Source of the DNA: an uncultured Bacillota bacterium | GTDB lineage: Bacteria > Bacillota_I > Bacilli_A > RFN20 > CAG-631 | DNA length: 58,946 bases | Reading direction: 5' to 3' | Assembly (NCBI GenBank): GCA_905197115.1 | Contig: CAJJXN010000002.1 | Span: forward strand, 1 to 58,946 | In this document: one piece after another, positions 3,260 to 53,310 of the stretch | Layout of the letters: every line of letters begins with the position of its first letter | How positions within the stretch are numbered: the first letter of the stretch is position 1 | Program-made: the position numbers and the translations under genes | Notes under the pieces: generated by a model | What the model was told of the DNA's origin: nothing | Seen by the model: only the letters and a program-made list of their open reading frames with translations | Database searches by the model: none

Positions 3260-3274
3260 AATTTCACCTCTATT

Positions 3275-3302: not shown

Positions 3303-3346
3303 TCTTGCTTATATTTTATCACATTTAATGAATAGATACAACCATT

Positions 3347-7579: not shown

Positions 7580-7580
7580 A

Positions 7581-7844
7581 ATGGGCGAAATATTTACATT
7601 TTTTAAAAATGCTACGAAAGCATTGCTTTTTTCTCCTTTTTATTTACTTTACTTTTGTGTACTAATACTGAAATCTTTCGTCTTATTTTTCATTGGAGAG
7701 TTTCATTCTTTTATAGGCATTTTTAAACATAAAAGTTATGATAAACCTAGTCATAACATTTATGAGAGACGTTTGAAACTATGCAAAGAAAAAAATGCCA
7801 CTTTTGATGTTTTAAAAGAATTAAATAGGCGGAAATCTTTGTAA
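7581..7844 (+). CDS. Small membrane protein
   Basis: 87 aa. Starts 1 nt after the previous stop and its stop overlaps the next start (TAATG), implying an operon with its neighbours. Confidence 0.55.
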   Translation: MGEIFTFFKNATKALLFSPFYLLYFCVLILKSFVLFFIGEFHSFIGIFKHKSYDKPSHNIYERRLKLCKEKNATFDVLKELNRRKSL

Positions 7845-8587: not shown

Positions 8588-10202
8588 GGCTCACTTTTTT
8601 TAAATAAAAATGCAATCTATAAGGATTGCATTTTTTGTTTAGTTCATTAAGCAGTAAGTAATCAGCAACATTTAATGGTGTGATATCTTCAAATGTTTCA
8701 CCATAGTGGAATTCAACTTTTTGGTTGAATACATAATAAGGAACATCACTAAGATTTGATTCATAATAAGCAATTTCAGTGTAATCAATTGAAATTGGTG
8801 TATTATCTTTGTCATATACAGCAATTAAATGTTGTCTAACACCTGGTTCTTCTTCATCTTCTTGAGAGAATGCTAAGTTGATATAAACAGTTGTATTTCC
8901 TTTTTCATCTCTTGTAGCTGCATAACGAGCATTGTTGTAATTTTTACCGATAACACTTGAGTAAGCTTGAACCATGCTATCTCTTAAATCAACTGCTGTT
9001 TCTGCAGTTACTTTTGCAGAATAAGCACGAACTGAATCTTCCACAGTTGTATCTTCATAATCTTGAAGTGTATATTTGTGCCATTCTTTTGTACCATTTA
9101 CAGTAAATTCGTAGTTACCTTCTTGTTTTGTATAATTCAAAGCATATAATTCTTGTTTAGAAGCTGTTTCAATCGCTGTTTCAACACCTGTACCATAAAC
9201 AAGTCCTGAAGCACCATAAGCTTCTCCTGTATAATGTCTTAAATTTTCTTCGTTTACAATTGTGTAACCAGCACTTGAACCGGCATTGAATTGAATTGTT
9301 TCTACAACATGTGTAGAAGTTGCTGTAGCAGTAGTTGCTTCTGTTGTTTTAATGACTGCTGAAATTTCTGTATCCGATAATTGATTAGCAACATTAATTT
9401 CTTCAACTTCAATATCTGGGAACCATTCAGCATAGTCATTTTCATTTAAGAATGTACCATCATAATTTCCTTGGCTTGCATAACCATATTTATAATTGTT
9501 ATTAATTTCAATTAATTTATCTCCAAAATTATTTTTTAATTGTTGGAAATTTGTAAAGGATGCAAGTTGGAAAGTTCCTTTTACTTCTTTACATACAACT
9601 TCATATTTAATTGAAAGAACATTTCCATTTGCTAAATTTGTTTTTTCTTCTAATTTGAAATTGTATTCAGAACCTTTTTTAGTTGCTTTAAAACTTTCAT
9701 TTTCAGATTCATTTGCTTCTCTTAGTTCACCAATGAATTCTTTATCTACACCAGAGTATAATAAATCATTTAATTGAGATCCTGCTCTTGTCTTTTTATA
9801 AGAAAAAGTTGCTTCTCCACTATCTGTTTCATCGTGTAAAGTATATGCTTTGCTAACTTTACGGAATGTTTGTTCAACAACATTCCATTCTTCATCGGCA
9901 ATTAAAGTTTCATAATGTGCTTTACCAGTTGAAATAGCAACATGATTATCATGAATTTTCTTATTCATTTCATAAGAAATCGTAACATCACCATATTGTT
10001 CATTATACTGATATTGACTAGTAGATTCCTTTACTGTTGTCAAATTTTTACCCATTTCTACTAAATTTAGTAAGATTTCTGAGGTTCTTTCTTTTCCAAC
10101 TGCTTCAGTAACAACTTTTTTTTCACATCCAGCCATTAATGGAAGAGCCAAAGCAGCCAAACTTGTAAACATTAATGTTTTCTTATTCATTTTTGTTTCC
10201 AC
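8535..10202 (-). CDS. Predicted lipoprotein
   Basis: Signal peptide plus lipobox (LALPLMAGC). 555 aa soluble T/E/Y-rich body. The 3' ~35 codons run through a terminator-like hairpin and overlap the convergent gene, so the C-terminus is uncertain. Confidence 0.75.
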   Translation of the reverse strand: METKMNKKTLMFTSLAALALPLMAGCEKKVVTEAVGKERTSEILLNLVEMGKNLTTVKESTSQYQYNEQYGDVTISYEMNKKIHDNHVAISTGKAHYETLIADEEWNVVEQTFRKVSKAYTLHDETDSGEATFSYKKTRAGSQLNDLLYSGVDKEFIGELREANESENESFKATKKGSEYNFKLEEKTNLANGNVLSIKYEVVCKEVKGTFQLASFTNFQQLKNNFGDKLIEINNNYKYGYASQGNYDGTFLNENDYAEWFPDIEVEEINVANQLSDTEISAVIKTTEATTATATSTHVVETIQFNAGSSAGYTIVNEENLRHYTGEAYGASGLVYGTGVETAIETASKQELYALNYTKQEGNYEFTVNGTKEWHKYTLQDYEDTTVEDSVRAYSAKVTAETAVDLRDSMVQAYSSVIGKNYNNARYAATRDEKGNTTVYINLAFSQEDEEEPGVRQHLIAVYDKDNTPISIDYTEIAYYESNLSDVPYYVFNQKVEFHYGETFEDITPLNVADYLLLNELNKKCNPYRLHFYLKKVSLRLKAHFFVHFLKELCY

Positions 10203-37087: not shown

Positions 37088-38569
37088 TTATTTTATTTCA
37101 ACTATTTTAGTGGCAATATTTTTTATAAAAGTAACATCATGCTCTACAAAAATAAGGGTTATATCCGAATCTTTTAACAATTCTTCAATCTGTATTCTTG
37201 AAATCACATCAATATAATTTAATGGTTCATCCCATATATACAAATTCGCTTCTTCACATAAACTTTTCGCGATTAAAACTTTCTTTTTTTGTCCTTCACT
37301 AAAACAATCAATTGAAATTTGAAATTGTTCTCTTGAAAATCCCAACTTAAATAACATATTGAAAAATTTCGTTTGGTCTAATTGATTTTCATATACAAAA
37401 TCTATTAATGTTCCTTTTAAATTGTCATATTTTTGACATATATAAGATATTTTTATTTTATTGTCCATATAGAAACTTCCATGATATTGAATATTCTCAG
37501 TTAATATAAATTTTAATAAACTTGTCTTTCCACAACCATTGGCACCTACAATAGCAATTTTATCATTTTTTAGAACTTCAAAAGAAATTGGATTAAATAA
37601 ACATTTTGAATCATAATATAAAGACAAATTTTTTGCTTCAATGATACTTTCTTTATTTAATTCTTGTGAATTGAACGATAATTTTTCTTGTTGTTCAATA
37701 TTTTTTAGCAATTTTGATTTTTCTTCAATGGATTTATTTTTTCTTGCTTCCATGACTTTTCCATGTTTCGCCATTTTTGCAGCTTTATGCCCTATAGCCC
37801 CTTTATCGGGCTTTAATCCACCTATTCTTGTTCCATTCTTTGTATTTTCCACTTTATCTGACCAAGTTATTTTTTGTCGCATACTTTCTTGTAAACGTGA
37901 AATTTCTTTTTTTAACTTTTCATTTTGTTCATTTTCAAAATTATCTTGATTTTGTTTGTTTTGCCACCAAGAGGTGAAATTTCCTTTTTGAATTTCAATA
38001 TCTTTTTTATTAATTGAGATGATATGGTCTACACAATGATCAATAAAATCACGATCATGTGAAACCACAATAAATCCTTTTTGTTGATTTAAGAATTTTT
38101 TTACACATTCTCTACTTTTAGAATCTAAATGATTAGTAGGTTCATCAATTAATAAAAAGTTATTTTCTTTTGAAAATAAGATGGCTAATAAAAGTTTCGT
38201 TTGCTGACCATTAGATAAAATATCAAAAGGTTGATATAAGCATTCTTCATCTAATTCTAAAGTATGCATTTTTTTCATGACTTCCCATAATTCACATTCA
38301 GGGTTCATTTCATAAAGTATGTCAATAGCTAATTGATTCTTGTTTTGAACAATGTAGGGAAAGTAATCAAAATGTAAAGGACTACTAATTTTTCCCTTAT
38401 ATTCATATTTTTTAAGCAATAAATTTAACAATGTTGTTTTCCCTCGTCCATTGCGGCCAATTAACCCTATTTTCCAAGTTGTATCAAAAGATAGATTGAT
38501 ATTTTCAAAAACATTTTCTGCATTTCCATCGTATGCAAATGTTAAATTTGTAATATTAATTTGTGCCAT
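37088..38569 (-). CDS. ABC-F ATPase, Lsa-like (candidate ribosome-protection antibiotic-resistance factor)
   Basis: Two ABC cassettes without TM domains (GRNGRGKTT.. / GANGCGKTS.., LSNGQQTK / FSEGQKKK, LLIDEPTNHLD / YIWDEPLNYID) joined by a K/E-rich linker. The N-terminus INITNLTFAYDGNAENVFENINLSFDTTWKIGLIGRNGRGKTTLLNLL closely resembles Lsa-type proteins. Start set at ATG 38569 (AAGGAGG RBS); the upstream extension would include the terminator. Confidence 0.85.
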   Translation of the reverse strand: MAQINITNLTFAYDGNAENVFENINLSFDTTWKIGLIGRNGRGKTTLLNLLLKKYEYKGKISSPLHFDYFPYIVQNKNQLAIDILYEMNPECELWEVMKKMHTLELDEECLYQPFDILSNGQQTKLLLAILFSKENNFLLIDEPTNHLDSKSRECVKKFLNQQKGFIVVSHDRDFIDHCVDHIISINKKDIEIQKGNFTSWWQNKQNQDNFENEQNEKLKKEISRLQESMRQKITWSDKVENTKNGTRIGGLKPDKGAIGHKAAKMAKHGKVMEARKNKSIEEKSKLLKNIEQQEKLSFNSQELNKESIIEAKNLSLYYDSKCLFNPISFEVLKNDKIAIVGANGCGKTSLLKFILTENIQYHGSFYMDNKIKISYICQKYDNLKGTLIDFVYENQLDQTKFFNMLFKLGFSREQFQISIDCFSEGQKKKVLIAKSLCEEANLYIWDEPLNYIDVISRIQIEELLKDSDITLIFVEHDVTFIKNIATKIVEIK

Positions 38570-38587
38570 ATTCTTAACCTCCTTACA

Positions 38588-38732
38588 TAAAAAAGCCACA
38601 AGGAAATAACCTTATGGCTTGTTATTTATAACAATGAATAAGATGAATTAATTTCCTTGTTTGCACAGCAAAAAGAAGTTAATTCAATTTATTGTGCTAC
38701 TATTTAATTAAAAGATTCTTTCTCATGTTCAT
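38588..38732 (-). promoter_or_regulatory. Leader-peptide attenuator of the ABC-F gene
   Basis: 10-codon uORF MNMRKNLLIK (38700-38732). Terminator AGCCAUAAGG-uuauuu-CCUUGUGGCU plus U6 (38588-38619). Upstream ACAAGGAAAU (38651-38660) is complementary to AUUUCCUUGU in the terminator loop/3' arm, which makes it a candidate antiterminator. Confidence 0.7.
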
Positions 38733-38837
38733 CACCTTCAATGTTTAAATAGTAGCATTATATGTAAGGAATGTCAAATTAACTTATGATACTTCTATTA
38801 TTTCTACTTATATTAAACTCTTAACTACTTAAATATA

Positions 38838-39887
38838 TTAAACTTTTTTTGCTACATATGAAACGGGAATTAAATCAAAAATTTTCAACAACTCTTCTCC
38901 ATCAAAAACTTCTACATTATAAGTTTTTAACGACATATTTAAATTATATACTCTATACAGTTTGAATTGTTTTTTCTTATCTCTGCAAATTTCAAGTTCT
39001 TTTGCTGTTAAATAGAAATTCTCAATCATATTTGATTTTGTTGTTTTTACTTCAATAAATATTTCATTATTATATTCATCATAAGATAAAATGTCGTATC
39101 CTAATCCATCACCTTTTGTTATTGCTACATGTTCAACTGGTTTTGAAATTCCTTTATCAAGTAATTTATTTTCTTCATCTTTTAAGATAAGACACTCTCC
39201 AAAAGTGCCAAGTTTTTTCTGCCTTTTATTTAATGCATTAAAATCAATTTTTCTATGAGTGACTTTTCTATTTTGTGATTCTTTTTTTTCATTCTGCTCT
39301 ACACTATTATTTTTATAAATTCCTTGGTAATCATTTATATTTTCTGAAGAACTTTCGATTATTGTATTTTCTTCTAAAATTGATGTGATTCCTTTTAAAC
39401 TTATATCTTCAAAATTAATTAACTTTATTTTCTCTTTTCCCAGTATTGATAAAAACTCGTCTTTTGTTATTTGATTCATTCCATATTGATTCCAAAAATG
39501 TCCCCAATTTCCATCTTTTTTCTTTTTTGATGTCCAACTTATTGAATTTAATCTTGAATCCGTTTCATAAATAGGATTTTCCAAAGAAAAACCTGTAGAA
39601 ACAATTGCTTCCACATTCCCGTAATTATCAATTTTTTTTATCGATTGAATAATTCCACCACCAAAAAAATAAAATTTTTTGCTTTTAGAATATCTTTTGG
39701 GCTGCCTATAAATAAAAAGAGAGCCTTCTTCTAATTTTGCATATTTTCTAAGATTATAGCAATACTTTATATAATTTCTATCTCCTAATTGACTGTTTGT
39801 GACAACATTATTTAATCCATCTTGTTTTGTGTCCAATACATAATATTTTCCAGATATATTTTTATCTAATAAATCAGTTATATTCAT
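38838..39887 (-). CDS. DUF3883-type PD-(D/E)xK nuclease with N-terminal beta-rich reader-like domain (candidate type IV restriction enzyme)
   Basis: C-terminal LGTFGECLIL...GYDILSYDEYNNEIFIEVKTT...FYLTAKELE...YRVYNL matches the DUF3883 / restriction-endonuclease-like pattern (D...ExK). The N-terminal ~150 aa is an unassigned domain. Start placed at ATG 39887 (GGAGGTG RBS); the track start at 39911 is a TTG. Confidence 0.7.
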   Translation of the reverse strand: MNITDLLDKNISGKYYVLDTKQDGLNNVVTNSQLGDRNYIKYCYNLRKYAKLEEGSLFIYRQPKRYSKSKKFYFFGGGIIQSIKKIDNYGNVEAIVSTGFSLENPIYETDSRLNSISWTSKKKKDGNWGHFWNQYGMNQITKDEFLSILGKEKIKLINFEDISLKGITSILEENTIIESSSENINDYQGIYKNNSVEQNEKKESQNRKVTHRKIDFNALNKRQKKLGTFGECLILKDEENKLLDKGISKPVEHVAITKGDGLGYDILSYDEYNNEIFIEVKTTKSNMIENFYLTAKELEICRDKKKQFKLYRVYNLNMSLKTYNVEVFDGEELLKIFDLIPVSYVAKKV

Positions 39888-39973
39888 TTTTCCACCTCCT
39901 ATCTTATCCAAATTATAACTAATTAAAATTGTATGCTTGTATTTGATTTGAATATAAAATCCAAACCTAATTT

Positions 39974-42004
39974 CTATCTTTTATAAACATTTAATGGTTG
40001 CTTTTTAAATTTATGATTAGCAGAAAGAATTTTTATAGGAATAACTGTCAAATTATATTGGTCATTTTCTAAATCTAAAAATGCCCAAATTTTAGTTTTT
40101 GTTTCTTCAAATTTTTTCTCGTCTTGGAGTTTATCTTGAATAAATAAAATAACATGATGACATGAATTATTTTCTTTTTGCTTTGTTCCCATACAAATTT
40201 CTAAAATATCTTCACTATCTTTTGCAATCTCAATAACTTTATTTACCACTGTTTCGTTACTATAAGCGATTAGCTTATCATTAAGATTAATTCTTAAAAC
40301 ATATTCTAGTGCTTGTTCATTATCATAAGTAGAAGCAATTAATTCTCTTAAAGAATTTCTTAACTCTAATTTACCTGTAATTGTTGCATATTCTCCTAAT
40401 GCATCAAATGCAGTTGTGACAAATTGTGAATTTTTTTCTTCAAATACTAATTGCAAATGAGAAATACAATCATCACTAAATTCATAAAAAGCCAAAATCA
40501 TACCTAATATTAAATGAGCTCTCGAATTATCTTTTGCAACTTCTAAAACTTTTAAAGCACAACTTTTAGCAAATTCCATTTCCCCACATTGAAAAGCTTG
40601 GTCCATTAAAGCTTGTACTTCATTTATTTCAATGTTGAAATTAGATTCAATAGCTGCTTCTTTTTTAGAAGTATATTCATCATAAAATTGAATAAAGTGA
40701 TCAAATACTTCGATTTTTTCTTTTTTTAATACTTTTTCATTAATTTCATTGTAAAAAATTCGAATATCTTCATCAAAATAATTTGACGAAACAATTAATG
40801 GATCTACTTCTTTGCTTGCAAATTTTTCGACTCTTTGTTTTACGTTAGGATGTGTAGGTAATCTTGATTCAAGATGATTTTTAGAAGCAAAGAGAAAAAA
40901 GTCTTGATGTTGATTATAAAAAGATAAATATCTATCAAAATATTGTTGAATAGTTTCATCATCCCATTGATGCTTTTTAGATAGTGCGTATTCAATATCA
41001 TATCTAGGAATTCTATAAGCATAAGCCAATCCAAAAAGTTTGATTGCCACTCTTGCATATGCATCGCCAACATTTTTATTTAACACTTCATTATCAGCTT
41101 GTGTCTCATATGCAATTGAAGTACTTAATTGTAATATTTCATTATCAATTATTACAAAAGACATTTTAGGATAAATAAAGAAGTACATACTATATGGTAA
41201 GAGAACATTTAAAAGATTGGTATACTTTTCTTTTTCTTGCGTTAATTTTGTATGTTCTTTTTTATAATGTGCAATTTCATGATAAATAACTGATCTAATT
41301 TCTTCTTTTGTGAAAAACTTTAAAATTACAACTCCTATAGCAATAGAAATTATATTGTTTTTTTCTGAAATCCCAACATTTACATCATCAATTAAATTAA
41401 TCTCAATTTCTTTATCTATTCCTTCTTCTGCAAATATATCTTTAATAAATTGGTATGTTAAAGGATACTTAATTTCCTCTATTCCTTTATCAAATAGTTT
41501 CATAAATAAAACATAAAAAATTGTTATCCCTGCACCTATAGATATAAGCAATAATGAACCAATAATTGCAATGTATAACCCTGCCACTTCAATTTCTTCT
41601 AAATGATTAAAAACTTTAAATGCAAAACCATTTACAAAAACTAATAGAATTTGAAAAATATAAAATGAGATAGTATACATACAAACTTTTTTATAACTTG
41701 CTATTACTCTTTTATAATTTGATTCATAATTTTTAAGTGCTTCATCTTTCTTTTCTAATATAGTAGAAAGCATCTCTTCTCCATTTTTTGCTTGTAATTG
41801 ATTGTTATATTTTTTTGTTCTACTAGCATTTAATAAAAATAATAACATGAATAAAACATCAACTATAGCTAATGGTATCCAAATATTTATGTTTAAATTT
41901 AATTTATTCCCTAATAAAATTCCTAAAGTATAGACTCCAACAAATAAAATAATTGACGATAAAATGGCTAAAAATATGGATAATCCCTTGTTTTTCTTAT
42001 TCAT
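39974..42004 (-). CDS. Membrane-bound M48-like zinc metalloprotease with large C-terminal helical domain
   Basis: 676 aa. About 4 N-terminal TM segments. HEIAHYKKEH (HExxH), a downstream ETQAD and THPNVKQRV are typical of M48/BlaR1-like peptidases. The C-terminal ~250 aa is helical. Confidence 0.7.
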   Translation of the reverse strand: MNKKNKGLSIFLAILSSIILFVGVYTLGILLGNKLNLNINIWIPLAIVDVLFMLLFLLNASRTKKYNNQLQAKNGEEMLSTILEKKDEALKNYESNYKRVIASYKKVCMYTISFYIFQILLVFVNGFAFKVFNHLEEIEVAGLYIAIIGSLLLISIGAGITIFYVLFMKLFDKGIEEIKYPLTYQFIKDIFAEEGIDKEIEINLIDDVNVGISEKNNIISIAIGVVILKFFTKEEIRSVIYHEIAHYKKEHTKLTQEKEKYTNLLNVLLPYSMYFFIYPKMSFVIIDNEILQLSTSIAYETQADNEVLNKNVGDAYARVAIKLFGLAYAYRIPRYDIEYALSKKHQWDDETIQQYFDRYLSFYNQHQDFFLFASKNHLESRLPTHPNVKQRVEKFASKEVDPLIVSSNYFDEDIRIFYNEINEKVLKKEKIEVFDHFIQFYDEYTSKKEAAIESNFNIEINEVQALMDQAFQCGEMEFAKSCALKVLEVAKDNSRAHLILGMILAFYEFSDDCISHLQLVFEEKNSQFVTTAFDALGEYATITGKLELRNSLRELIASTYDNEQALEYVLRINLNDKLIAYSNETVVNKVIEIAKDSEDILEICMGTKQKENNSCHHVILFIQDKLQDEKKFEETKTKIWAFLDLENDQYNLTVIPIKILSANHKFKKQPLNVYKR

Positions 42005-42657: not shown

Positions 42658-45600
42658 CTATTTTAATTTCCAATTTTTAAAGAAATCAGAAATAAATACA
42701 TCTTGGTTAGCATAAAGAATTCTATTTACTTCTTTCTTGCTCATATCAAGTAAATCAGCTATTTTTCCAGCTTTAATTCCTCGCTTTTCGTCTAAAAGAA
42801 CTTCTTTAATACGATCTAAATTTGAAACAATATCAGTTTCTTCATCACTGTTTTCTTTATCGAATTCTTTTTGTTCTAAAGAAGCAAAAAAAGTTAAAGA
42901 ATCAGCCTGAGTTTCTTCAATACTATAGTCTTTTTCAACATTAAATTGTTTATCAACTGTGGCTTCAGTCTCTTCAGCTATTTCATGAACTTGATATTTA
43001 ATATAATCAATAAATGATTGCCCTCCCTCAAGAATTGTTGCTCCTACTTCTGTTTCATCTAAGCCAAAACCAAACCAATCAAAAGAATTCCTATATTGTC
43101 TTTTAACTTCTTCATCTTCAAGATTCAACTTAGAACCTAATGATTCATTAACAAAGAATTGGTGAATATAGTTATTAAGTACGTTTTCTTGAAATATATG
43201 ATATTTATTTAAAACTTCAAAGTCTTTCTTAGTAATACCTACAGCTTCTAAGAAAACATTAGGATCAGCGTTGTTAAATATTTCTTGGAATGTTGTTTCA
43301 CGATAAACACTTATATATAAAAATTCAAATAAACGTGCCAATATATGCTTCATGACGTTATCAGCATCTTCAACCGATTTTCCTTTTTCATAAGGAACTT
43401 TAGGGGCAAGCTCATTCTTAACGGCTCTCTTAAAAGAATCTGAATACCATCGCCTATATAGTGCACCTCTATATTCAACTGGAACATTATTCGTGTCATT
43501 AAGATACTTATGCATAAAATCAGTGATCATTTTTTTTGTATCTTCTTTCCAAACGATTGATTCTCCGAATTTTTCTTTTACTTTATTTACAAATTTAACA
43601 CCATCATCATGACCGCAATTTAATTTTTTAACAGGCGCATTAACTCCGCTTTCATATCCTTTTATAAATCCGTTTGACCACCATGTCGACTCCACTTGAT
43701 CATAATCTTTTGGACAAAATTCTTTAATATAATCTGCCATTGTCTGTTCAAAAGCCAATTGAATTTCTGAATTGTCATAATCAACGTAATTTTCGTAGTC
43801 TTTCATTCCAAGTTCGTAGCCTTTATCACGGCCAGTTTTTGCAATTTTAGTTTGGAATCCATCATTTTCTGGTTTTTGGGGCATAGTTTGAGATTTTGTC
43901 TTGTTGAATTTTGCATGAGCAAATACTCTTTTAATAACATCACTTACTTCATTATCATTAAGCATTGATGCTATAACTTCTTCATCAAGCATCCTTGTTG
44001 TCTTTGAAGTATCAGTGATTTTTCTAGAAAGTGGTATACCACTTGTATCACCCAATTCCGCTAATTCATAGAATACATCAGCACCGATTGGCTGAGTCAT
44101 ATCTCCATTAACAAAAATAGGCATATATTTAACAATAAGCTTGGCAATTTGAAGTTTAGTAACTGCTCTATCTTCGGATTGTTCAGCGTATTTCAAAAGT
44201 AAAGCAGCTGCTCTATCGATATTAAAATCATAGACAAAACCATACGTTTTTTTGATTTCACCTTTTTCTTTATAAGGTGTTTGAATTCTAAATATTGATT
44301 GGAAATATTGTTCAGGAGAAGCTAAATCCTTCAAAACGAATACACTAAACCACTCTTTTACAGTTACACCGATAGTAAGTTTATTAACTGTTAAAGCAAT
44401 AGAACCTAATTTGTTAGTATTATTTGCTGCAGTAATTTCATCTTTCAAATAATCATAAGCATCAACGCCAGCTCCTACGCCATCTTTAGAAAGGTCAATT
44501 ATTTGGTATTTCTTAAAATAATCGTCTTCTTCTAAAAGCTTAGCCATCGCATGGACTGCATTTACTCTAGGCATAAGCCATAGTGTGTGTTTATTATTAT
44601 TTAACATATCTACGTTTGAATATGGAAATTTATCACCAAATGTTGATTTGCCTTTGATTATTTCAAGCCATTTCTTAATTTCTTCTTCATAAACGAAAAC
44701 ACAAGGTTCGTTTGGATTGGAATCCCTTCTGGTTTCAAAGAACCTATTCAAAGAAAAATACTTCTTTCCATAAAGAGTGTCTCCAGAAAAAACTGAAGCA
44801 GTCATATTTGAGAAAAGTCTAGTCATGTTATAACCAAAGATTCTCATATCTGGAAAATGTGCATAATCAGGATTAACTGTTTTGAAGTCACCTTCATCGC
44901 TATTTGGATATTTATTTCTTTGCTCATCAAAATATGAATATGTGAAAGTATTTTCTTTCGTGAACTCCCCTTTTGCAATTGCTTTAAATGGAGTTCCAGA
45001 TAAACATATTGTTTGTCTTGTATTGATTTTAAATGTTTCAATAATATCTTTAGTTTTCTTTAGTTCTTTTTGATATTCTTTATCCAAATCTTCTTGACTC
45101 TCAAGCGTTCCTTGAGTTCTTTCGTTCCACGCTCCGAAGTGATATTCATCCAATACTACTAAATCCCAATCGATCTCTTGAAGTTTTTTAATCTTTTCTT
45201 TGGTTTCAAAGGAGTTTCTATTTTTACCTAGATAATTTTGCAACGACAAAAATATTACATAAGGATCAGAGATAAAATTAGGTATAAAGCTATCTCTTCT
45301 TAAATTTTCGTCAGTATAGTAATCGTAATGTTTTTTAATATGAGTCAAATCTTCTCTCCACGAAGATTCAACGGCTGGAATAAATGTAAGAATTAAAACC
45401 TTATCTAATCCTGCTTCTTCACAATATTTATATGTGGTGAATGATTTGCCATATCTCATTTTACAGTTAAGAAGGAATCTGCCACCTAATTTGTGATCTT
45501 TAAAATAATTTAGTAACGCATCAACGCATTCTCTTTGTTCTTCTCTTGGCTCATATATTTTGTTATTGAAACCATCTTTTCTGCATTGCTCAAAAACCTC

Positions 45601-46038
45601 AACAAGTTCATCGGCAGGAACGTTTTGGAACCATTCTTGCTCTTTCTCGGTTAAGCCAGATTTCATAGCTAGAATTTGGTCGTGAACTTTGTAGTCTTTG
45701 AATGATTCATCGTGAGCATCCAAACAAACACCCCAATAAATTACTTCTCTTTCAAGACCGTATTTTGCATATTGTTCTTCAGTCAAAGCAAGCTCATTTT
45801 GCTGATTTTTAATTCTAGCTTTAATTGCATGCCAAAAAGTCTCATCCATTTTGCATTTTGTCATTCCTACTTTAATTCCATGAGATTGGAACTTCGGCAG
45901 AATGTACATGTATAAAACAATTAAGTTTTGTTCAGTATCATTTATATCGTCTAAATGTAATGTTTTAGGCTTTCCTTTATATTTTACCGAATCAGTAGGA
46001 TTAATATCAGCAGATTTTTTTACTTGTATTTCAGCCAT
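42658..46038 (-). CDS. SF2 helicase (ResIII/DEAD-like) with N-terminal T5orf172/GIY-YIG-like domain and C-terminal winged-helix-like tail
   Basis: 1126 aa. N-terminal LYMYILPKF..GIKVGMTKCK...ARIKNQ...KVHDQI. Helicase motifs KMRYGKSFT (I), VVLDEYHFGAW (II), CLSGTPFKA (III), QSIFRIQTP (VI-like). The last ~50 aa, KAGKIADLLDMSKKEVNRILY, look like a wHTH. Confidence 0.8.
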   Translation of the reverse strand: MAEIQVKKSADINPTDSVKYKGKPKTLHLDDINDTEQNLIVLYMYILPKFQSHGIKVGMTKCKMDETFWHAIKARIKNQQNELALTEEQYAKYGLEREVIYWGVCLDAHDESFKDYKVHDQILAMKSGLTEKEQEWFQNVPADELVEVFEQCRKDGFNNKIYEPREEQRECVDALLNYFKDHKLGGRFLLNCKMRYGKSFTTYKYCEEAGLDKVLILTFIPAVESSWREDLTHIKKHYDYYTDENLRRDSFIPNFISDPYVIFLSLQNYLGKNRNSFETKEKIKKLQEIDWDLVVLDEYHFGAWNERTQGTLESQEDLDKEYQKELKKTKDIIETFKINTRQTICLSGTPFKAIAKGEFTKENTFTYSYFDEQRNKYPNSDEGDFKTVNPDYAHFPDMRIFGYNMTRLFSNMTASVFSGDTLYGKKYFSLNRFFETRRDSNPNEPCVFVYEEEIKKWLEIIKGKSTFGDKFPYSNVDMLNNNKHTLWLMPRVNAVHAMAKLLEEDDYFKKYQIIDLSKDGVGAGVDAYDYLKDEITAANNTNKLGSIALTVNKLTIGVTVKEWFSVFVLKDLASPEQYFQSIFRIQTPYKEKGEIKKTYGFVYDFNIDRAAALLLKYAEQSEDRAVTKLQIAKLIVKYMPIFVNGDMTQPIGADVFYELAELGDTSGIPLSRKITDTSKTTRMLDEEVIASMLNDNEVSDVIKRVFAHAKFNKTKSQTMPQKPENDGFQTKIAKTGRDKGYELGMKDYENYVDYDNSEIQLAFEQTMADYIKEFCPKDYDQVESTWWSNGFIKGYESGVNAPVKKLNCGHDDGVKFVNKVKEKFGESIVWKEDTKKMITDFMHKYLNDTNNVPVEYRGALYRRWYSDSFKRAVKNELAPKVPYEKGKSVEDADNVMKHILARLFEFLYISVYRETTFQEIFNNADPNVFLEAVGITKKDFEVLNKYHIFQENVLNNYIHQFFVNESLGSKLNLEDEEVKRQYRNSFDWFGFGLDETEVGATILEGGQSFIDYIKYQVHEIAEETEATVDKQFNVEKDYSIEETQADSLTFFASLEQKEFDKENSDEETDIVSNLDRIKEVLLDEKRGIKAGKIADLLDMSKKEVNRILYANQDVFISDFFKNWKLK

Positions 46039-46039
46039 A

Positions 46040-47770
46040 TTAATTCATCTCCTTAATCGAACTTTCTATTAAATTAATTTCATCTGCTGTTAAATTATAT
46101 TTTTTGTATAGTTTATCATCAGTCCATGCTTCACTGAAATTTTGTTTTGGAAGAAATACAAGAACACTACGTGATAAATGTGTTGAAGACATCGCAAGCC
46201 AAATCAAAAAACGAGAAAACCTAGTTTTTAAATAAGAACAAAGATTATCTGCTTCCTTTTTATTATCAAATTTACCAATTAAAAAATAAGATTGAGTACA
46301 AGCCGTTTTTGGACCTATAACTCTCATTGAGTTGGTAATAATTCTAAAACGACCATCTTTATCTGGTTCTAATGCATGCTCTGCGCCAAGAATTCCAACC
46401 AAAACTTTATATTTGTTTAAATAATCCACAGATTTTTTTATTTCAGATTTTTTAATATACGTAATATCTTTGCTGGAAATAAGCTCAATATCATTTTCAT
46501 TTTGTTTTGTTATTGAACCTCTAACATCTGACTTTAAGCCAAACGGCATTGTTGAACTGGCAAAAGAAGTCATATTTTCTTCATTGTAACTACTAATTTT
46601 TTCCAAAATGTCGACAGCCTTATTATTTCTAACTAAAATCGGAAATTCATTTAAATCTCTTGAAATGGAATATTTAGAATCGCTATTAACATTTGTGAAC
46701 AGACACCTGCCGTTGTAGTCTCTACCCCACAAAAAATAACAAACTCCGCCAGCTACACTATTTGACGGAAAACAATCTTTTGCGTTTGCAAAATCATTAA
46801 GACAAATTATTTTTCTACATGACATCATATATTCTCTGAACTCATCTAAGACTGACATGCCACCCGCAAACCATTTCGATGGAATAATCATGGAAATATA
46901 CTTTGGTTTTAGAGCAACTGCTTGCTTAAAAAACAATTGATAAATAGGCATAGAAGGCGGATTACCTTTTTCGGTTGTATCTTTTTTCGTATCTAGTTGA
47001 TAAGGCGGATTTCCTATAATAATATCGAATTTCATATTTCTATTACCTCCAAAAAACCTATCTTGTAAATGTTCTAATAGTTCGTTTCTTTCAGTATGAA
47101 TAAATTCATACGCGTACGTTTCTTTTTGATTTATATCGTTATATTTTGAATCACCTGCAATGCTACAATATTTGCATTTGTATTTGCTCTTTTCTTTCTC
47201 GCTGCAATTAAAGAACATCTTTTTACCTCTATTGTTCACAAATAAATGATCAGCACATGGTGTTTTGATATTTCCTTCTTCATTATCAAACCATGTTCCA
47301 TTACCAATTGCATACCCATTAATGTAATGTCCGTCTGGAGCTTTTAATCCATCACATTTTCTATTGGCTTGTGAACAGTAATAAACCGTTCTTCTTGCTA
47401 CATTAGCGGTAAATTTTGTTTGGCCGATAGAGTAAATCATATTTTGAAGAATGTGTTTTCTTCTTTTTTCTTTATCAGGTATTACATCTTTTAACCCTTT
47501 ATCAAGTCTAATGGCAATCTCTCGTTCAAAAATACCATTTTTTGTTGCAGGGTTTAACCACTTGTAATTAGGATTGTGCCACACTTCTTCAGGCAAAGAA
47601 TCAAGCATCATATCACAAGTTTTTCGAGGAGTGAAAACCTCATCGTTACCAACATTTGTAATAGTTTCTAAAATATCAAAATTTTCAACGTAATCATAAG
47701 CATCCTCAACTGCGGTTTTATACTTTTCTTCGGCATCTAATGCTTCATTGTTCTTGATTTCATCTACCAT
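46040..47770 (-). CDS. Eco57I/TaqI-like N6-adenine DNA methyltransferase-family protein (NPPY intact, SAM motif I degenerate, Cys-rich insert)
   Basis: 576 aa. VFTPRKTCDMM (motif X), LNPATKNGIF in the motif I position, IIGNPPYQ at codons 251-258 (nt 47000-47011 encode NPPY), Cys-rich insert CSQANRKC...CSEKEKSKYKCKYC. The stop lies 1 nt before the helicase ATG. Confidence 0.8.
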   Translation of the reverse strand: MVDEIKNNEALDAEEKYKTAVEDAYDYVENFDILETITNVGNDEVFTPRKTCDMMLDSLPEEVWHNPNYKWLNPATKNGIFEREIAIRLDKGLKDVIPDKEKRRKHILQNMIYSIGQTKFTANVARRTVYYCSQANRKCDGLKAPDGHYINGYAIGNGTWFDNEEGNIKTPCADHLFVNNRGKKMFFNCSEKEKSKYKCKYCSIAGDSKYNDINQKETYAYEFIHTERNELLEHLQDRFFGGNRNMKFDIIIGNPPYQLDTKKDTTEKGNPPSMPIYQLFFKQAVALKPKYISMIIPSKWFAGGMSVLDEFREYMMSCRKIICLNDFANAKDCFPSNSVAGGVCYFLWGRDYNGRCLFTNVNSDSKYSISRDLNEFPILVRNNKAVDILEKISSYNEENMTSFASSTMPFGLKSDVRGSITKQNENDIELISSKDITYIKKSEIKKSVDYLNKYKVLVGILGAEHALEPDKDGRFRIITNSMRVIGPKTACTQSYFLIGKFDNKKEADNLCSYLKTRFSRFLIWLAMSSTHLSRSVLVFLPKQNFSEAWTDDKLYKKYNLTADEINLIESSIKEMN

Positions 47771-48408
47771 ATTTCAACATCCTCCTCATGAAAAGATATG
47801 TTAGTCTCTGAAATATCCCAAACAGGAAAATCCAAAGGTATAAAGTCATTTTTCTCCGCATTTGGCATTTTATATGCAACTTCAGTTCCAAAAATTCCAA
47901 CATCTATCTTGTTTTTGCTATTAAACATAGCCCATATGTAATTTGTAGTTATTATGCATTTAACAATATCAAAATAAGATTGATCAACTTCAATTTTCCT
48001 TTCTTCAACGAATAATATAATCAATGTGAAGATGTTGTTTCTTTGTTTATTTATTAACTCTTTATCCATCTCAATTGAATATATAGTAGATAGGGCTTTC
48101 AAAGATTCAATCTCAAAATTATCTGATATAGTTTCTAATCTTTTTTTTAGAATACATGTTGTAAAAGCTCCATCCCCTGATGTTGGTTCAAGAACCGTTT
48201 TACTAAAATCCAAAATATCTGGTCCTACTGCTTCAGTCATTTGCTTAACAATAAACTCAGGAGTAAAGACTTGATAACCTTCAGTATCGTTAGAACCTAA
48301 AGAAGCTAGTTTCAAAGAATCATAAGCTTCAATTAAATCAAAAGTCTTTATTTGTGTCTTGCTAAGCTTGTTTTTTATGTTTTCTACGAAAGGTGTAAAA
48401 TCCATCAT
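47764..48408 (-). CDS. Truncated methyltransferase-like protein (SAM motifs X, I, II intact; no NPPY)
   Basis: 214 aa. VFTPEFIVKQM (X), VLEPTSGDGAF (I), IYSIEMD (II). The motif IV position reads ITTNYIW. Overlaps the upstream HTH gene (ATGA) and the downstream methylase gene (7 nt). Confidence 0.7.
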   Translation of the reverse strand: MMDFTPFVENIKNKLSKTQIKTFDLIEAYDSLKLASLGSNDTEGYQVFTPEFIVKQMTEAVGPDILDFSKTVLEPTSGDGAFTTCILKKRLETISDNFEIESLKALSTIYSIEMDKELINKQRNNIFTLIILFVEERKIEVDQSYFDIVKCIITTNYIWAMFNSKNKIDVGIFGTEVAYKMPNAEKNDFIPLDFPVWDISETNISFHEEDVEIW

Positions 48409-48623
48409 TTCTCCACCTCTTCCATTTCAATTTCATTTTCTTTGCATAGTTTTTCAATTCTTACTCTAGCAATTTTAACAGGGATGGCTCTATTGTTTTC
48501 CCATCTCGAAACGGTTGGATATGAAACCATCAATAAAGCTGCTAAATCAGTTTGAGAAATATTCAATTTAGATCTTAATTCAATCAATGCTTTAGACCAA
48601 TTAGTTTTATTCATATGTTGCAC
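48405..48623 (-). CDS. XRE-family HTH protein (controller-like regulator of the methylase-helicase operon)
   Basis: 72 aa. LRSKLNISQTDLAALLMVSYPTVSRWENNRAIP. It is the first gene of the translationally coupled operon. Confidence 0.8.
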   Translation of the reverse strand: MQHMNKTNWSKALIELRSKLNISQTDLAALLMVSYPTVSRWENNRAIPVKIARVRIEKLCKENEIEMEEVEK

Positions 48624-48969: not shown

Positions 48970-49500
48970 AGCATACGAAATGGCTATTTAATAATATAGA
49001 AAATAGAAGGATCAACTGCATAATTCTTTTCACTATTTATCTTGTCTAAAATATTTGTTAACGTATAATAAACTTCACATATAAATAAATCATATTTAAT
49101 TCTTCTTAGGTTTCATTTAAGTCAACAAAAATTTTACTATCTTTCAAAAAAATGAATGTGTTAATTCATTTCGAACATTGATAACTACCTGAATCTTTTT
49201 AAATTTAATAATTTTTATTCATTAAACATAAAGCATTAAATTTACTACTTTTAGTTTCTACATCTAATTTCTCTGAAAGACTTCTGCTTAACTCTTCATT
49301 TCTGACATATCATCATTGCTTTTTAAAATTTTAATTTCCGGTTTTCAACTTTACTTTGAATTAATTTAAAACTCATATTTATGTATTCTTCTACATTCTA
49401 AATTAATAAGATTATTTTAAATATCAAAATGTGTACCTTGCAAGATTATCTCCTTTTCATTAGGAATTACCCTCATATTTGATAGCGCTGTGACGTTACA

Positions 49501-50067
49501 CTATTCTAAATATATTTTAATATTTTCTGCTATGTTTAGCCCCTTAACACAATTATTAATATCCTTTATGAAACCATTCTGATATTTTTTTGGTAATACA
49601 TTTTTTAAATATATTAAAGCTTGTTTTAAGTTTAAATCATCTAAATTAAAATCCAACATAATTCTATTATGAGATACTCTATTTCTCAAACTATTTATGA
49701 CCTTTTTTCCATTTTTCAAACTATCAAAATCAATGTCTATATTTAATAATTTCTCCTTATTTAAAACCTCTTTTATTACTTCTTTTAAATAAGAGTTCTC
49801 CAACTTATTGTAATCAACTTTGTCTATATTCCAAATGAGTGCTCTTAAATAATCTTCATAAAAAGATAGATACTTAAAAGTATTTACCAATAATCTTTTA
49901 TCATATCTTACTAAATCATCTAAAAATTTCCAAGTTATTTCTATATTATTTTTATCAAGTATATCAGCAAATTTTTCATACTTAGCAATTCCTTTTAGAT
50001 TCATCCACTTATCTGCTTCTTCCTTATTTGCATCATAGTCAACGATTCTTTTTTTTAATTCCACCAT
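49501..50067 (-). CDS. Abi_2 (AbiD/AbiF-like) HEPN-domain protein
   Basis: 188 aa. YDKRLLVNTFKYLSFYEDYLRALIW and the Rx4H motif in INSLRNRVSHNRIML, as in Abi_2/HEPN proteins. The start overlaps the upstream NTase gene by 29 nt. Confidence 0.75.
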   Translation of the reverse strand: MVELKKRIVDYDANKEEADKWMNLKGIAKYEKFADILDKNNIEITWKFLDDLVRYDKRLLVNTFKYLSFYEDYLRALIWNIDKVDYNKLENSYLKEVIKEVLNKEKLLNIDIDFDSLKNGKKVINSLRNRVSHNRIMLDFNLDDLNLKQALIYLKNVLPKKYQNGFIKDINNCVKGLNIAENIKIYLE

Positions 50068-50695
50068 AATTATTTACCTCTCTTACAAATACTTGTGCAG
50101 ATGATATTTTTGTTTCATCATTATCATCTTTTCTCTTTTCTTTACATTTAACCGGAATAATATAATTTTCAATTAAATCTCTTTTTTCAATATGAGATAA
50201 ATTATTAAATTTTATATACGCTTGATTTAATTGAGGTAGTTCATTCCAAGTAAATTCATTTTTACTTGGAGTTTCTATTTTATTATTTCTTCTTATAATT
50301 TGATTGTTTTCAGGAAATAATTTAATAATTACAAAATCAATATGAAAATGATGTTCATCTTTATTTATTAAAGTAATTGCTGTTGTTGAGTTTTCAATTT
50401 TTTCATTTTTTGAAATATGTTTATTAAAAGCACCAATAAAATCCTGTTTTATCTCTGTAGCATATTTCAATTTATTATTCTTATATTCTTTAGAGTTTTT
50501 AGTTAACAAAATTTGGTAATCTAAATCATAATGTCCCTTTTCATCTTTAACCATAGTTCCCCATTTACCTGATCCAACCAATCTAAATGTAAATGAATAT
50601 TTTTGAGATAATTCTCGTTGAACGATATTAAGAAGTTTTAACGCTCGTTGTCTTGCTACTCTACATTCTTTTTTACTTACTCTTTTAAATCTCAT
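50039..50695 (-). CDS. Minimal nucleotidyltransferase (pol-beta superfamily; SMODS/MNT-like)
   Basis: 218 aa. FRLVGSGKWGTMVKDEKGHYDLDYQI (GS...DxD) and a third acidic residue in HFHIDFVI. The C-terminal ~90 aa forms a helical extension. Confidence 0.75.
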   Translation of the reverse strand: MRFKRVSKKECRVARQRALKLLNIVQRELSQKYSFTFRLVGSGKWGTMVKDEKGHYDLDYQILLTKNSKEYKNNKLKYATEIKQDFIGAFNKHISKNEKIENSTTAITLINKDEHHFHIDFVIIKLFPENNQIIRRNNKIETPSKNEFTWNELPQLNQAYIKFNNLSHIEKRDLIENYIIPVKCKEKRKDDNDETKISSAQVFVREVNNYGGIKKKNR

Positions 50696-50722
50696 TATAT
50701 CATTTCCCCTCCACTCTTTTCC

Positions 50723-51364
50723 TCACTTTATCTCGCTATTAATATAAATCTCTGTTAATATATCTTCCATTCGAAGATAAAAGGATTTTTTGCTGTATAG
50801 AGTTCCAATAGTTTTTGCTATACTTGAAAATATTGCCCATCCTATTAGTACTAAAACTACTAGTTCTGAAATAATCTGTACCTTTTCATTAACAATATTG
50901 GCATTTTGATCATAAATAAAGGTCCCCATGCTAATAAAAACAGCTAAAATTGATAAAAATGCTCCTCCGCCATTTATAGAACGTGGAATATAAACTCTAT
51001 AATGCTCTATAATGTGTCCCACTTTTGGCCTTGTATTAATACCTTCTTCTTTTAAAATCTTTTTAAGTAATTCCTTGTCTTTATTTCTTTGGTTATTAAA
51101 AAAATTGTTTATGGTATAAGATAAATTGAATACTTTTTTCCAATTATTTTTTGAATACACCTTCATATAGACATTTTTAAAAACGATGTATGTATATATG
51201 ATAAAACATAAAAATATTATGAAAATAATAAAAAAACAAAGATTAGTTTCTTTTAAAATTAAAAATCCGAATACAAAATAAAAAACAAAAGTTATAAATA
51301 AAAAGAAGATATTTTTATGATAAACGGATGATTTTTTAAATTTGCTTTCTATATTATTAAACAT
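50723..51364 (-). CDS. Four-TM membrane protein (candidate membrane effector)
   Basis: 213 aa. TM pairs at about residues 18-62 and 143-195 flank a basic ~80-aa loop. 27-nt gaps to both neighbours. Confidence 0.65.
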   Translation of the reverse strand: MFNNIESKFKKSSVYHKNIFFLFITFVFYFVFGFLILKETNLCFFIIFIIFLCFIIYTYIVFKNVYMKVYSKNNWKKVFNLSYTINNFFNNQRNKDKELLKKILKEEGINTRPKVGHIIEHYRVYIPRSINGGGAFLSILAVFISMGTFIYDQNANIVNEKVQIISELVVLVLIGWAIFSSIAKTIGTLYSKKSFYLRMEDILTEIYINSEIK

Positions 51365-51391
51365 TATTATTAACTCCTTCCATAGAACAAT

Positions 51392-52375
51392 TTACTTGAA
51401 AATTCTATAGTTTAATTCATCTAAATCGTCTATATAACACTCAAATATATTTTCTATTCCTGCAAGTTTAGCATTTGAATATACTAAATCTTTTTCATTA
51501 TCTGGCATGTTTAATCCTAATATAATTCCCCATGGTTTCCATTCCATTGTTATCGGCTTATCACACCAAATCGGAGATATCATACGCCATTCTTGATCAT
51601 ACATATGACATTTTTTCTTTATTAACGTAATTTTTTCTCTTTCCCATTCCAGTTTAGGGAACAAATTAAAAATTATATCATTCGCTATTTTATTAGAAGT
51701 AAGTTGCCTTAAAACTAAAGATGCACTAAACCATTTTGCATATTCTGTAGCATTGTATGGTTCATCCGAATAATAAATAGGATATAATGAAGGATTAGCA
51801 TTTTTTAAATCACACGTATCGCATTGATCTTTTTTTCCACATAAATAATTAGCTTCATTTTCCATATCATATATAAGTGCAAATCCTTTATGTTGGTTGG
51901 CATATTTAATCCACAATGTTTCATTTAACCCATTTTCTGAAAAACAAACTGATAATGTATAACTTCTTAAAGTATTTCTAATATCACTTTTGATTAATTT
52001 AACTATTTCATTACAAAAATTTTTAGTATCAAATGATTCTAATATTTTATTAATTGATTCTTCATTAAACGGAATGCCTATTTCTTTATACATGTATTTT
52101 ATTTTTTCAACAATATTATCTCGATGAAAAATTTCATTAATACTATTATATATTTCATTCTTGTCAATTCTTAAAAAAGTATCAAAAGGGTCATCATAAT
52201 AATTTGATGTAGAAAAAATTAATTTGTTATTTTTTAACTCTTCCAAACTTTTCATTGTTAAACTTCTATATCTATAAAGATATTTCGGATATTTTATTAT
52301 ATTTTTGGAAAACTTATCATTACTTTTTAAAGAACATAATGTGTCCCAAAAAACTTTTCTTTCTAAATTATTCAT
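51392..52375 (-). CDS. DUF2971-family protein
   Basis: 327 aa. N-terminal YLYRYRSLTMKSLEELKNNKLIFSTSNYYDDPFD matches the DUF2971 signature (YRY.s....l.n..l.fs.p..fNDPfE) as I recall it. Confidence 0.7.
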   Translation of the reverse strand: MNNLERKVFWDTLCSLKSNDKFSKNIIKYPKYLYRYRSLTMKSLEELKNNKLIFSTSNYYDDPFDTFLRIDKNEIYNSINEIFHRDNIVEKIKYMYKEIGIPFNEESINKILESFDTKNFCNEIVKLIKSDIRNTLRSYTLSVCFSENGLNETLWIKYANQHKGFALIYDMENEANYLCGKKDQCDTCDLKNANPSLYPIYYSDEPYNATEYAKWFSASLVLRQLTSNKIANDIIFNLFPKLEWEREKITLIKKKCHMYDQEWRMISPIWCDKPITMEWKPWGIILGLNMPDNEKDLVYSNAKLAGIENIFECYIDDLDELNYRIFK

Positions 52376-52420
52376 TTTATTTTCTCCCTAATTATCAAAT
52401 TCCTTGATTTGTAAAATCCT

Positions 52421-52800
52421 ATTTATTATCATTTTCATTAACTCATATCTTTTTTTTAGGAAATGCCCAGGTTATAAAATTTATTGCGATTTCATGTTGA
52501 GCATATGTCCCCCTTCCTTTTCCTTGTTTTGATATTAATCCTTTTGAATTTACATTGGCAATCCATATCTTTAAAGTCAATGTAAATGATGTTTTTTTGT
52601 TTTGTAGATTAGCTCCTTTGCTTTTTCTAAATCAAAATCTAGGTTGTGTTCTTTCTCCCAAAAACATAACAATTCCAATGTGTTTTTATCACGTAGCCAA
52701 GATTGGATGACATAACTTGGATTTAAATCTTTTTGTTTTGCAATCTCTGTTATAGAATATTTCTGTTTATCTTTATATCTCAAATGATCTAAATCTAGTG
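52421..52800 (-). pseudogene. KilA-N-like DNA-binding protein gene, frameshifted
   Basis: ORF ...YSITEIAKQKDLNPSYVIQSWLRDKNTLELLCFWEKEHN... stops at 52577. The homology-like continuation LKIWIANVNSKGLISKQGKGRGTYAQHEIAINFITWAF is in another frame (52421-52570). Confidence 0.55.
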
Positions 52801-53219
52801 TAAGTTGTGCGTAATGCTCATTTTTTTAGAAGATTATCAATTTTTTTCTTTGCACTTTGAAATATGTCATCTACATCTTCAGATAGTAAACATGAATTTT
52901 GATGCAGTTCTTTTAGTGTTTGTTCAAAATATTTAAATACTCTTCTATTGCATCTTTGTAAATTTCTAATCCCATAAAGCTAACCTTTATGTAATTATTA
53001 TACCATATTTTGACAAAAAAGAAAAGCAAGCCACTATAACTTGCATATTTTTATGTTTTAAATTTAATTGAGCATTAAAAGTCACGTATTCTTATGTTTA
53101 TATTTTTATTCAAATCTATAATACTTTAAAAGGTATAAAATATATTATTTTATATCAATTTCATACAAAATAATAATAAAATCGTACTGTAACTCGACAA
53201 AATACGATTTAATTTGCGA

Positions 53220-53310
53220 TGGCGGAGAAAGGGGGATTTGAACCCCCGCACAGTGTTACCCGCCTACTAGCTTTCCAAGCCAGCCCCTTCAGCCTCTTGG
53301 GTATTTCTCC
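53220..53310 (-). tRNA. tRNA-Ser (anticodon GGA), encoded CCA end
   Basis: Reverse complement GGAGAAATACCCAAGAGGCTGAAGGGGCTGGCTTGGAAAGCTAGTAGGCGGGTAACACTGTGCGGGGGTTCAAATCCCCCTTTCTCCGCCA. It has a 7-bp acceptor stem and an anticodon stem CTGGC/GCTAG with loop TTGGAAA. It also has a long variable arm and a TPsiC arm GGGGG-TTCAAAT-CCCCC. Confidence 0.9.

Follow-up and report, generated by a model that had tools for sequence, protein, structure and literature searches.

We analyzed a 58,946-nt stretch of DNA (hereafter the window; contig CAJJXN010000002.1, assembly GCA_905197115.1) from an uncultured Bacillota bacterium of the RFN20/CAG-631 lineage, and examined in it a block of four genes, A to D, at positions 49,501-52,375. 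Genes C and D of this block form a strictly co-conserved pair that couples a minimal nucleotidyltransferase (NTase), related to the CD-NTases (cGAS/DncV-like nucleotidyltransferases), to a HEPN protein of probable AbiF type. The block as a whole very probably comprises three independent defence-island modules, namely gene A (a DUF2971 protein), gene B (a membrane protein) and the C-D pair, packed together in the window lineage with C-D as the core. An initial annotation, made from the sequence alone, had read all four genes as one candidate defence system; coupling of the NTase with the HEPN protein is strongly supported, and a four-gene system is not. In our best overall reading, to which we assign a probability of about 60%, the three modules are separate and NTase C keeps the HEPN RNase D silent in an abortive-infection or toxin-antitoxin (TA)-like arrangement.

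A co-conserved nucleotidyltransferase and HEPN pair

In the window, gene C (50039-50695, minus strand, 218 aa) is the first gene of the core and gene D (49501-50067, minus strand, 188 aa) the second. The ATG of D falls within the final codons of C and is preceded by GAGAGG. We surveyed the genomic context of C using homologues at decreasing identity, a scan of one genome per species and local hidden Markov model (HMM) searches on all fetched loci; co-conservation counts cover the loci where the contig leaves room for the partner gene. Starting from C, each of the 32 loci with room had a D homologue directly downstream. An overlap of 4-47 nt between the two genes is usual, and in most loci D starts inside the end of C, tying the translation of D to that of C. 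The reciprocal test gave the same picture: the D-family pattern retrieved 66 loci from metagenome contigs, with C directly adjacent on the same strand in 63/63 that had room, while the remaining three had <60 nt of upstream sequence. Gene order among these 63 was C-then-D in 55 and D-then-C in 8. Co-occurrence of the four families, a check that the initial annotation had proposed, thus upheld the pair from both directions and the quartet only among near relatives.

Altogether, we identified the pair in bacteria, archaea and a single phage, at about 95 loci in total. Its hosts include Anaeroplasmataceae, Acholeplasma and other Mollicutes-like lineages, Clostridia, Christensenellales, Bacilli, Treponema, Gastranaerophilales and three methanogenic archaeal lineages. 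The flanks vary in nearly every locus, and the known defence genes among them include Hachiman HamA/HamB, Lamassu LmuB, PDC-S04 Fic, PDC-S53, PDC-S06/PrrC-like, Shedu and a canonical Abi_2 gene. Searches of plasmids and IMG/VR viral contigs returned no pair, and GenBank a single phage, NatCom_17901 from human faeces (L050, PV036423.1), in which a D-like gene (225 aa) is followed by a C-like gene (205 aa) with a 26-nt overlap (2044-4564). Directly upstream of the phage pair is a 412-aa protein with C-terminal transmembrane helices, which showed no homology to the B profile (hhalign). In the phage, the pair may serve as a defence or as an anti-defence device. In one clade (L033, L034, L036, L037, L043), an IS3-family transposase (rve) lies directly upstream of C on the opposite strand, and its recurrence suggests that the module moves with insertion sequences.

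So far as its sequence tells, C is a minimal relative of the CdnB cyclases of CBASS (antiphage systems that signal through cyclic oligonucleotides), is predicted to be catalytically competent, and belongs to a distinct family of compact proteins that fall short of known CD-NTases by about 100 residues. Its active-site motifs are GS(41-42), D57xD59 and D120 (spacing GSX14DXD); across 64 family members at 19-54% identity, G41, S42, D57 and D59 are invariant and D120 nearly so. C therefore contains the pol-beta NTase core of CD-NTases, with GS, [DE]x[DE] and a third acidic residue. The AlphaFold2 model (predicted local distance difference test (pLDDT) 89.6) has only three C-terminal helices, and its best Protein Data Bank (PDB) folds in Foldseek were BfCdnB, DwCdnB, CdnG, DncV, CdnC, CdnE and cGAS (query TM-score (TMq) 0.62-0.66, best E 1.5e-7). 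All of the 50 matches listed, out of 92 with E <= 0.001, have the cGAS/DncV-like fold (CD-NTases, cGAS, MiD51), with CD-NTases ranking top. An antibiotic-resistance NTase (Lnu/ANT), the kinship named beforehand as speaking against a defence role, does not occur among these 50, and we rejected this identity. By sequence, a profile of the 64 diverse members matches DwCdnB (E 5.6e-7), with the alignment reaching only about the first 150 residues of CdnB. C itself matches the PADLOC CBASS Cyclase model PDLC00795 (2e-10) and scores 21.1 bits against Pfam DncV-like_NTFase, under the cut-off of 24.9. An exhaustive HMM search resolved the family into 329 clusters at 50% identity, almost all of 200-235 aa. 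In a second clade (L027-L042), the NTase has GSxxRRC in place of GSGxWGT.

D is probably a shortened HEPN protein of the Abi_2/AbiF type, predicted to act as an RNase effector or toxin. Its AlphaFold2 model is all-helical (pLDDT 94.2). Among PDB folds, PbAbiF in complex with its non-coding RNA (ncRNA) ranks first (8vz6_A; Foldseek probability 0.93, TMq 0.59, E 0.53) and Cas13d sixth, and the D family profile searched against the PDB has the same entry as its top match (E 0.0047). Against Pfam Abi_2 (PF07751), D scores 14.3 bits, under the cut-off of 25.6; all ten longer syntenic homologues tested scored above it (30-43 bits). Ten residues are invariant among 30 homologues (K25, D56, K57, Y66, E71, R128, N129, H133, P159, Y162), and the catalytic motif reads R128-N-R-V-S-H133-N-R, with no tyrosine at +2. 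Pfam, PADLOC, the model and the fold search matched D to HEPN/Abi_2 only, with no recognisable nucleotide-sensor domain. D homologues of the L027-L042 clade are longer (223-280 aa) and retain a 25-30-residue insertion in the region of the FW...R motif typical of Abi_2. Variants of D match PADLOC AbiD, and those of this clade weakly match PDC-M34B (2.5e-5), a candidate two-gene system.

Possible control of the HEPN protein by the nucleotidyltransferase

We consider it likely that C regulates D through nucleotides. Regulation of a HEPN RNase by the NTase had been suggested in the initial annotation, and the idea is strengthened for the strictly co-conserved pair, not as part of a four-gene system. 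As to the direction of control, we tentatively favour inhibition, at somewhat under even odds; activation, though doubtful, is rated not far behind, and any other relationship a little lower again.

Three precedents inform the inhibitory model. AbiD/AbiF are intrinsically toxic HEPN proteins whose active site is blocked by a neutralising RNA, encoded immediately upstream (PMC13064643). MntA acts on HepT by poly-AMPylation of a tyrosine that adjoins the Rx4H motif, and thereby neutralises it (PMC7641770). In Hailong and Panoptes, constitutively made nucleotides restrain the effector (PMC13434031, PMC12657218). By analogy, C, in which all catalytic residues are kept, would be a catalytically competent NTase, and D, which retains the HEPN RNxxxH motif, would probably be an RNase that stops growth when active, like canonical AbiF. 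C would then replace the upstream ncRNA antitoxin of canonical AbiD/F and keep D silent, in one of two ways. It may nucleotidylate D covalently, as MntA does to HepT, with the invariant Y66 and Y162 as candidate sites, or it may constantly make a small oligonucleotide that fills the RNA-binding site of D, comparable to the nucleotides of Hailong and Panoptes. Phage infection would lift the inhibition via depletion of nucleoside triphosphates, nuclease or sponge activity, or host shut-off, so that D would be freed and the infection aborted. A more specific version, in which C makes an oligonucleotide without a template that acts as an AbiF-type antitoxin by plugging the HEPN active site and is removed by phage nucleases or sponges, appears unlikely to us. 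If true, such an untemplated oligonucleotide antitoxin would be a Hailong-style guard on the HEPN scaffold ancestral to Cas13, joining the logic of CBASS, type III and type VII TA systems.

Inhibition is favoured because D is devoid of a separate ligand-sensing domain, its relatives act unless restrained, the NTase has been reduced to its core, and the loci share no conserved upstream RNA element. The tie between the translation of D and that of C also speaks for an inhibitory role. A hidden upstream ncRNA antitoxin, as in AbiF, was rejected on the absence of any conserved upstream non-coding element among the loci and of any Rfam match.

Several observations weigh against silencing of D by C. 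Three metagenomic loci carry single-base indels that frameshift C and leave D intact (L101 at about 2328, L103 at about 1850 and L111 at about 2757). The indels fall at AAA, at T8 and at an AT repeat, and might reflect assembly errors, phase variation or true pseudogenes. Should they be real, D is tolerated in the absence of C, which would be at odds with a strict antitoxin role and more in line with an activating signal. Decay of the pair is roughly symmetric, with C broken and D intact in these three loci, C intact and D broken in two (L039, L094) and both broken in one (L049). Early support for a TA-like asymmetry of decay, based on the broken D of L039 with no reverse case, was undone by the three frameshifted copies of C beside intact D, and we dropped it. 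Furthermore, the nearest solved relatives of C make activating cyclic nucleotides, and D does not have the RX4HXY tyrosine that MntA modifies (PMC7641770).

The strongest alternative is CBASS-like activation, a serious rival that we rate as doubtful. Here, C would stay silent until infection and then make a cyclic or linear oligonucleotide that binds D and switches on its RNase; examples of possible binding sites are the HEPN dimer interface and the N-terminal helices. The pair would then amount to a type I CBASS of very small size whose effector is a HEPN protein. By both fold and profile, the nearest relatives of C are true CD-NTases of clade B, and every C variant tested matches the PADLOC CBASS Cyclase model. 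Both gene orders exist, as in CBASS operons, and the frameshifted C genes suggest that D does no harm in the absence of C. Activation of HEPN RNases by nucleotides is well established for Csm6/Csx1 and RNase L. However, D is merely a shortened Abi_2 HEPN domain with no recognisable SAVED, CARF or STING sensor, and C is missing the roughly 100 residues that make up the C-terminal lid and regulatory region of CD-NTases. The AbiD/F relatives of D, moreover, are switched on by default and have to be inhibited (PMC13064643).

Genes A and B and the surrounding island

Gene A (51392-52375, 327 aa) and gene B (50723-51364, 213 aa) precede C and D on the same minus strand. As the initial annotation had described, the open reading frame (ORF) list gives four co-directional genes with gaps of 27 nt (A-B) and 27 nt (B-C) followed by a 29-nt overlap (C-D). 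The motifs that it had quoted are all present in the translations (YLYRYRS and LIFSTSNYYDDPFD in A; GSGKWGT, DLD and HIDFV in C; RNRVSH in D), and its domain calls were essentially correct: DUF2971 for A, which matches DUF2971/PDC-S31, a small pol-beta NTase for C, which is related to the CD-NTases, and an Abi_2-type HEPN protein for D. It went further in proposing that A serves as sensor or adaptor, with the membrane protein, the HEPN protein or both as effectors under NTase control. We consider this four-gene system very improbable, and the co-occurrence data largely refute it.

The case for a single system rests on gene packing and recurrence. Both 27-nt gaps contain Shine-Dalgarno-like sequences (GGAAGGAG and GGAGGGG). 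Scanning for terminators and promoters found no terminator-like site on the minus strand within the block, which makes co-transcription of A-D plausible, and the block is possibly transcribed together in the window lineage. Promoter-like sites were not in excess over shuffled sequence (43 vs 37.5 +/- 5.9), leaving the candidate promoter at 52376-52450 unsupported by the scan. The A-B-C-D block recurs in L007-L012 and L051-L053. Elsewhere, the pair has a B-family protein beside it in L003 and, in L017, a DUF2971 gene at 16 nt upstream. The L017 arrangement counts against the independence of A from the pair. Similarly, B-family proteins adjoin the pair in two arrangements (the window lineage and L003) despite the rarity of the family, so that a loose functional tie of B to the pair is possible. 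These two cases may reflect a shared island habitat or a loose accessory relationship.

Close packing in one genome is nevertheless no evidence of one system. A and B accompany C-D only in genomes with an NTase identity of at least 84%, and the four-gene block therefore reflects recent common descent; about 90 other loci hold the pair without A or B. Relatives also keep C and D while a neighbour decays: A is split into 96 + 220 aa in L007/L008, where B, C and D are intact, and B is shortened to 147 aa in L051-L053 beside intact C and D. Homologues of B stand alone elsewhere, a validated DUF2971 protein acts alone (Aristaios; PMC11381338), and the DUF2971 protein of L017 is so different from A that the two could not be aligned. 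Because A and B are not co-conserved with C-D and decay apart from it, we regard the quartet as a local juxtaposition, and the claim of one four-gene system fails under the refuting condition that the initial annotation had itself set.

On its sequence, gene A is unexceptional among the members of a known family of single-gene defences. It matches PADLOC PDC-S31 over residues 29-304 (2.1e-23) and scores 19.1 bits against Pfam DUF2971, just under the cut-off of 22. Full-length plasmid homologues of A carry the DUF2971 annotation. Aristaios is a 316-aa DUF2971 protein and an experimentally validated single-gene lactococcal antiphage system (PMC11381338), and a published description places DUF2971 among the DarT-like ADP-ribosyltransferases (PMC12522546). 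A resembles Aristaios/PDC-S31 in being a single DUF2971 protein of about 320 aa, most of which is spanned by the domain, in its predicted ADP-ribosyltransferase fold and in its defence contexts (PMC11381338; PMC12522546). This likeness is one of family and description rather than of direct sequence comparison, and the Pfam score of A lies under the cut-off. A is thus probably an Aristaios-like protein with a predicted ADP-ribosyltransferase fold, providing a separate, stand-alone defence.

Gene B is an orphan four-helix membrane protein, a lineage-specific neighbour outside the conserved core. Its four hydrophobic segments (approximately residues 16-40, 42-67, 132-152 and 160-189) flank a basic loop (15 K+R vs 5 D+E), bearing out the earlier description of two transmembrane-helix pairs around such a loop. 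B had no family match in Pfam, PADLOC or NCBIfam and no sequence match in the PDB, and its family is a rare one, with 9 clusters found in 5.8 billion proteins. Homologues with 69% and 55% identity stand alone in other defence islands; one lone homologue sits beside an AAA ATPase near an RnlAB pair, and another between the methylases of a restriction-modification system. In L003, a 438-aa protein (7285-8601) whose first ~220 residues correspond to a full-length B homologue lies 83 nt downstream of the C-D pair. This protein weakly matches Pfam 8xMP, an octameric membrane protein family (E 2e-4, below the cut-off), which is the only hint at the nature of B.

The juxtaposition of B and C also brings to mind Hailong, with B as an ion-channel effector kept closed by an oligonucleotide that C primes on its C-terminal tyrosine, and D as an add-on. 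The order of membrane protein then NTase resembles halA-halB as PMC13434031 describes it, and the tyrosine of the C-terminal EVNNY motif is nearly invariant in the window's clade of C; but almost all C loci are without B, and several clades lack the tyrosine (VNNRVE, VNNHVE, INNH; absent in L027, L029, L032, L040 and L042), making this explanation barely credible. Single-sequence and profile searches of PDB sequences returned no HalA/HalB relative, and HalB was not among the 50 listed Foldseek matches, although the presence of HalA/HalB entries in the searched PDB set is unconfirmed. HalB-like tyrosine priming of C was rejected on the variable tyrosine and the lack of a PDB sequence or fold link to Hailong.

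The location of the block in a defence island beside a tRNA gene, noted from the start, was borne out. The island edge is marked by tRNA-Ser(gga) at 53220-53310 on the minus strand (ARAGORN; Rfam tRNA 53.6 bits). Between this tRNA and gene A, tblastn located the remnant of a KilA-N-like gene (52391-52975, minus strand), with 48% identity to residues 1-197 of an intact 197-aa KilA-N protein of L051. The remnant contains stop codons, and its longest open frame is 68 aa. In L051, the intact KilA-N gene precedes the same gene block, and the remnant is probably a leftover of the mobile element that carried the block to tRNA-Ser.

On the other side, the 880-nt gap downstream of D contains a decayed copy of an ORF, now in three frame pieces (48993-49376, minus strand). 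L007 and L019 have the intact version, of 169 aa, downstream of D, and it had no family match in Pfam or PADLOC. Further into the island, neighbours match known defence families (a split type IIG restriction-modification system, PDC-S36/PD-T4-1 and an AriA/mad3-like ABC ATPase) and include an M48 peptidase. A four-gene operon at 42658-48623 (minus strand) encodes a 72-aa helix-turn-helix protein, a 214-aa methylase-like fragment, a 576-aa Eco57I-type methylase and a 1126-aa ResIII protein. The latter two match the two halves of one PADLOC type IIG restriction endonuclease-methyltransferase model, and the operon looks like a split type IIG system. At 37088-42004 (minus strand) lie genes for a 357-aa NOV_C protein (PDC-S36/PD-T4-1), a 503-aa double ABC ATPase (mad3/AriA) and the 676-aa M48 peptidase.

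Comparison with known systems

The initial annotation had placed the combination outside known layouts. This holds for the C-D pair and not for A, which is of an already known kind; what appears to be new here is the C-D combination. The pair has no model in PADLOC v2.0.0, where C variants match only CBASS cyclases and D variants AbiD and, weakly, PDC-M34B, and full-text literature searches found no description of a CD-NTase-like gene paired with an Abi_2 gene.

In organization, C-D recalls HepT/MntA (type VII TA). Both have a small NTase gene directly upstream of, and overlapping, a HEPN RNase gene, and both are strictly co-conserved. The NTase has GS...DxD and the HEPN protein Rx4H, with the precedent of an NTase silencing an RNase by poly-AMPylation (PMC7641770). 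The components differ: MntA has <150 aa, belongs to PF01909 and reads GSX10DXD (PMC7641770), whereas C has 218 aa, reads GSX14DXD, is CD-NTase-like and does not match PF01909. HepT toxins belong to PF01934/PF08780 and carry the RX4HXY acceptor tyrosine, in contrast to the Abi_2-type D, which has no DUF86 match and no acceptor tyrosine.

D itself recalls AbiD/AbiF (type III TA). It probably shares their HEPN lineage and has in common with them the motifs RYDKrL...E..LRA and RNxxxH, with PbAbiF as its best solved relative, yet AbiF exceeds it in length by about 110 residues. AbiF has an ncRNA as its upstream partner, whereas a protein-coding NTase lies upstream of D, where we found no conserved non-coding element and no Rfam match (PMC13064643).

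C, in turn, shares the NTase core and the fold of CdnB with the clade-B CD-NTases of type I CBASS (DwCdnB E 5.6e-7; BfCdnB TMq 0.62), and the pair resembles type I CBASS as a two-gene operon with a presumed suicide effector within defence islands. By contrast, CD-NTases span about 290-450 aa with a complete C-terminal helical lid, and members of the C family (200-235 aa) fall about 100 aa under the smallest solved ones. CBASS effectors carry a nucleotide-receptor domain (SAVED, STING or CapV-type), whereas D has no known cyclic-nucleotide receptor domain. We know of no described HEPN effector of CBASS, and none turned up in the literature searched.

Hailong (HalA/HalB) and Panoptes resemble the inhibitory mechanism that we favour, in that a small NTase constantly makes an inhibitory nucleotide that restrains a toxic effector (PMC13434031, PMC12657218). 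Their effector is a membrane channel, whereas D is a soluble HEPN RNase by prediction. In the PDB sequence searches and among the 50 listed fold matches, we detected no link of C to HalB or mCpol, and the C-terminal tyrosine is not conserved in C. Hailong needs a conserved HalA-HalB pair, whereas B occurs with C only in close relatives and B homologues also occur without C.

The C-D pair is therefore distinct, in the features that define each of them, from HepT/MntA, AbiF-type type III TA, Hailong and classical CBASS. It unites two well-studied immune parts, a cGAS/DncV-type NTase and a predicted HEPN RNase of the probable AbiF lineage ancestral to Cas13. Its small size (about 1.2 kb), strict co-conservation and place within defence islands make it an easy candidate for cloning. 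Whether C is an off switch, following type VII or guard logic, or an on switch, following CBASS logic, would show how AbiF-type toxins swap an RNA antitoxin for an enzyme, and the same answer would define the smallest working CD-NTase-like core.

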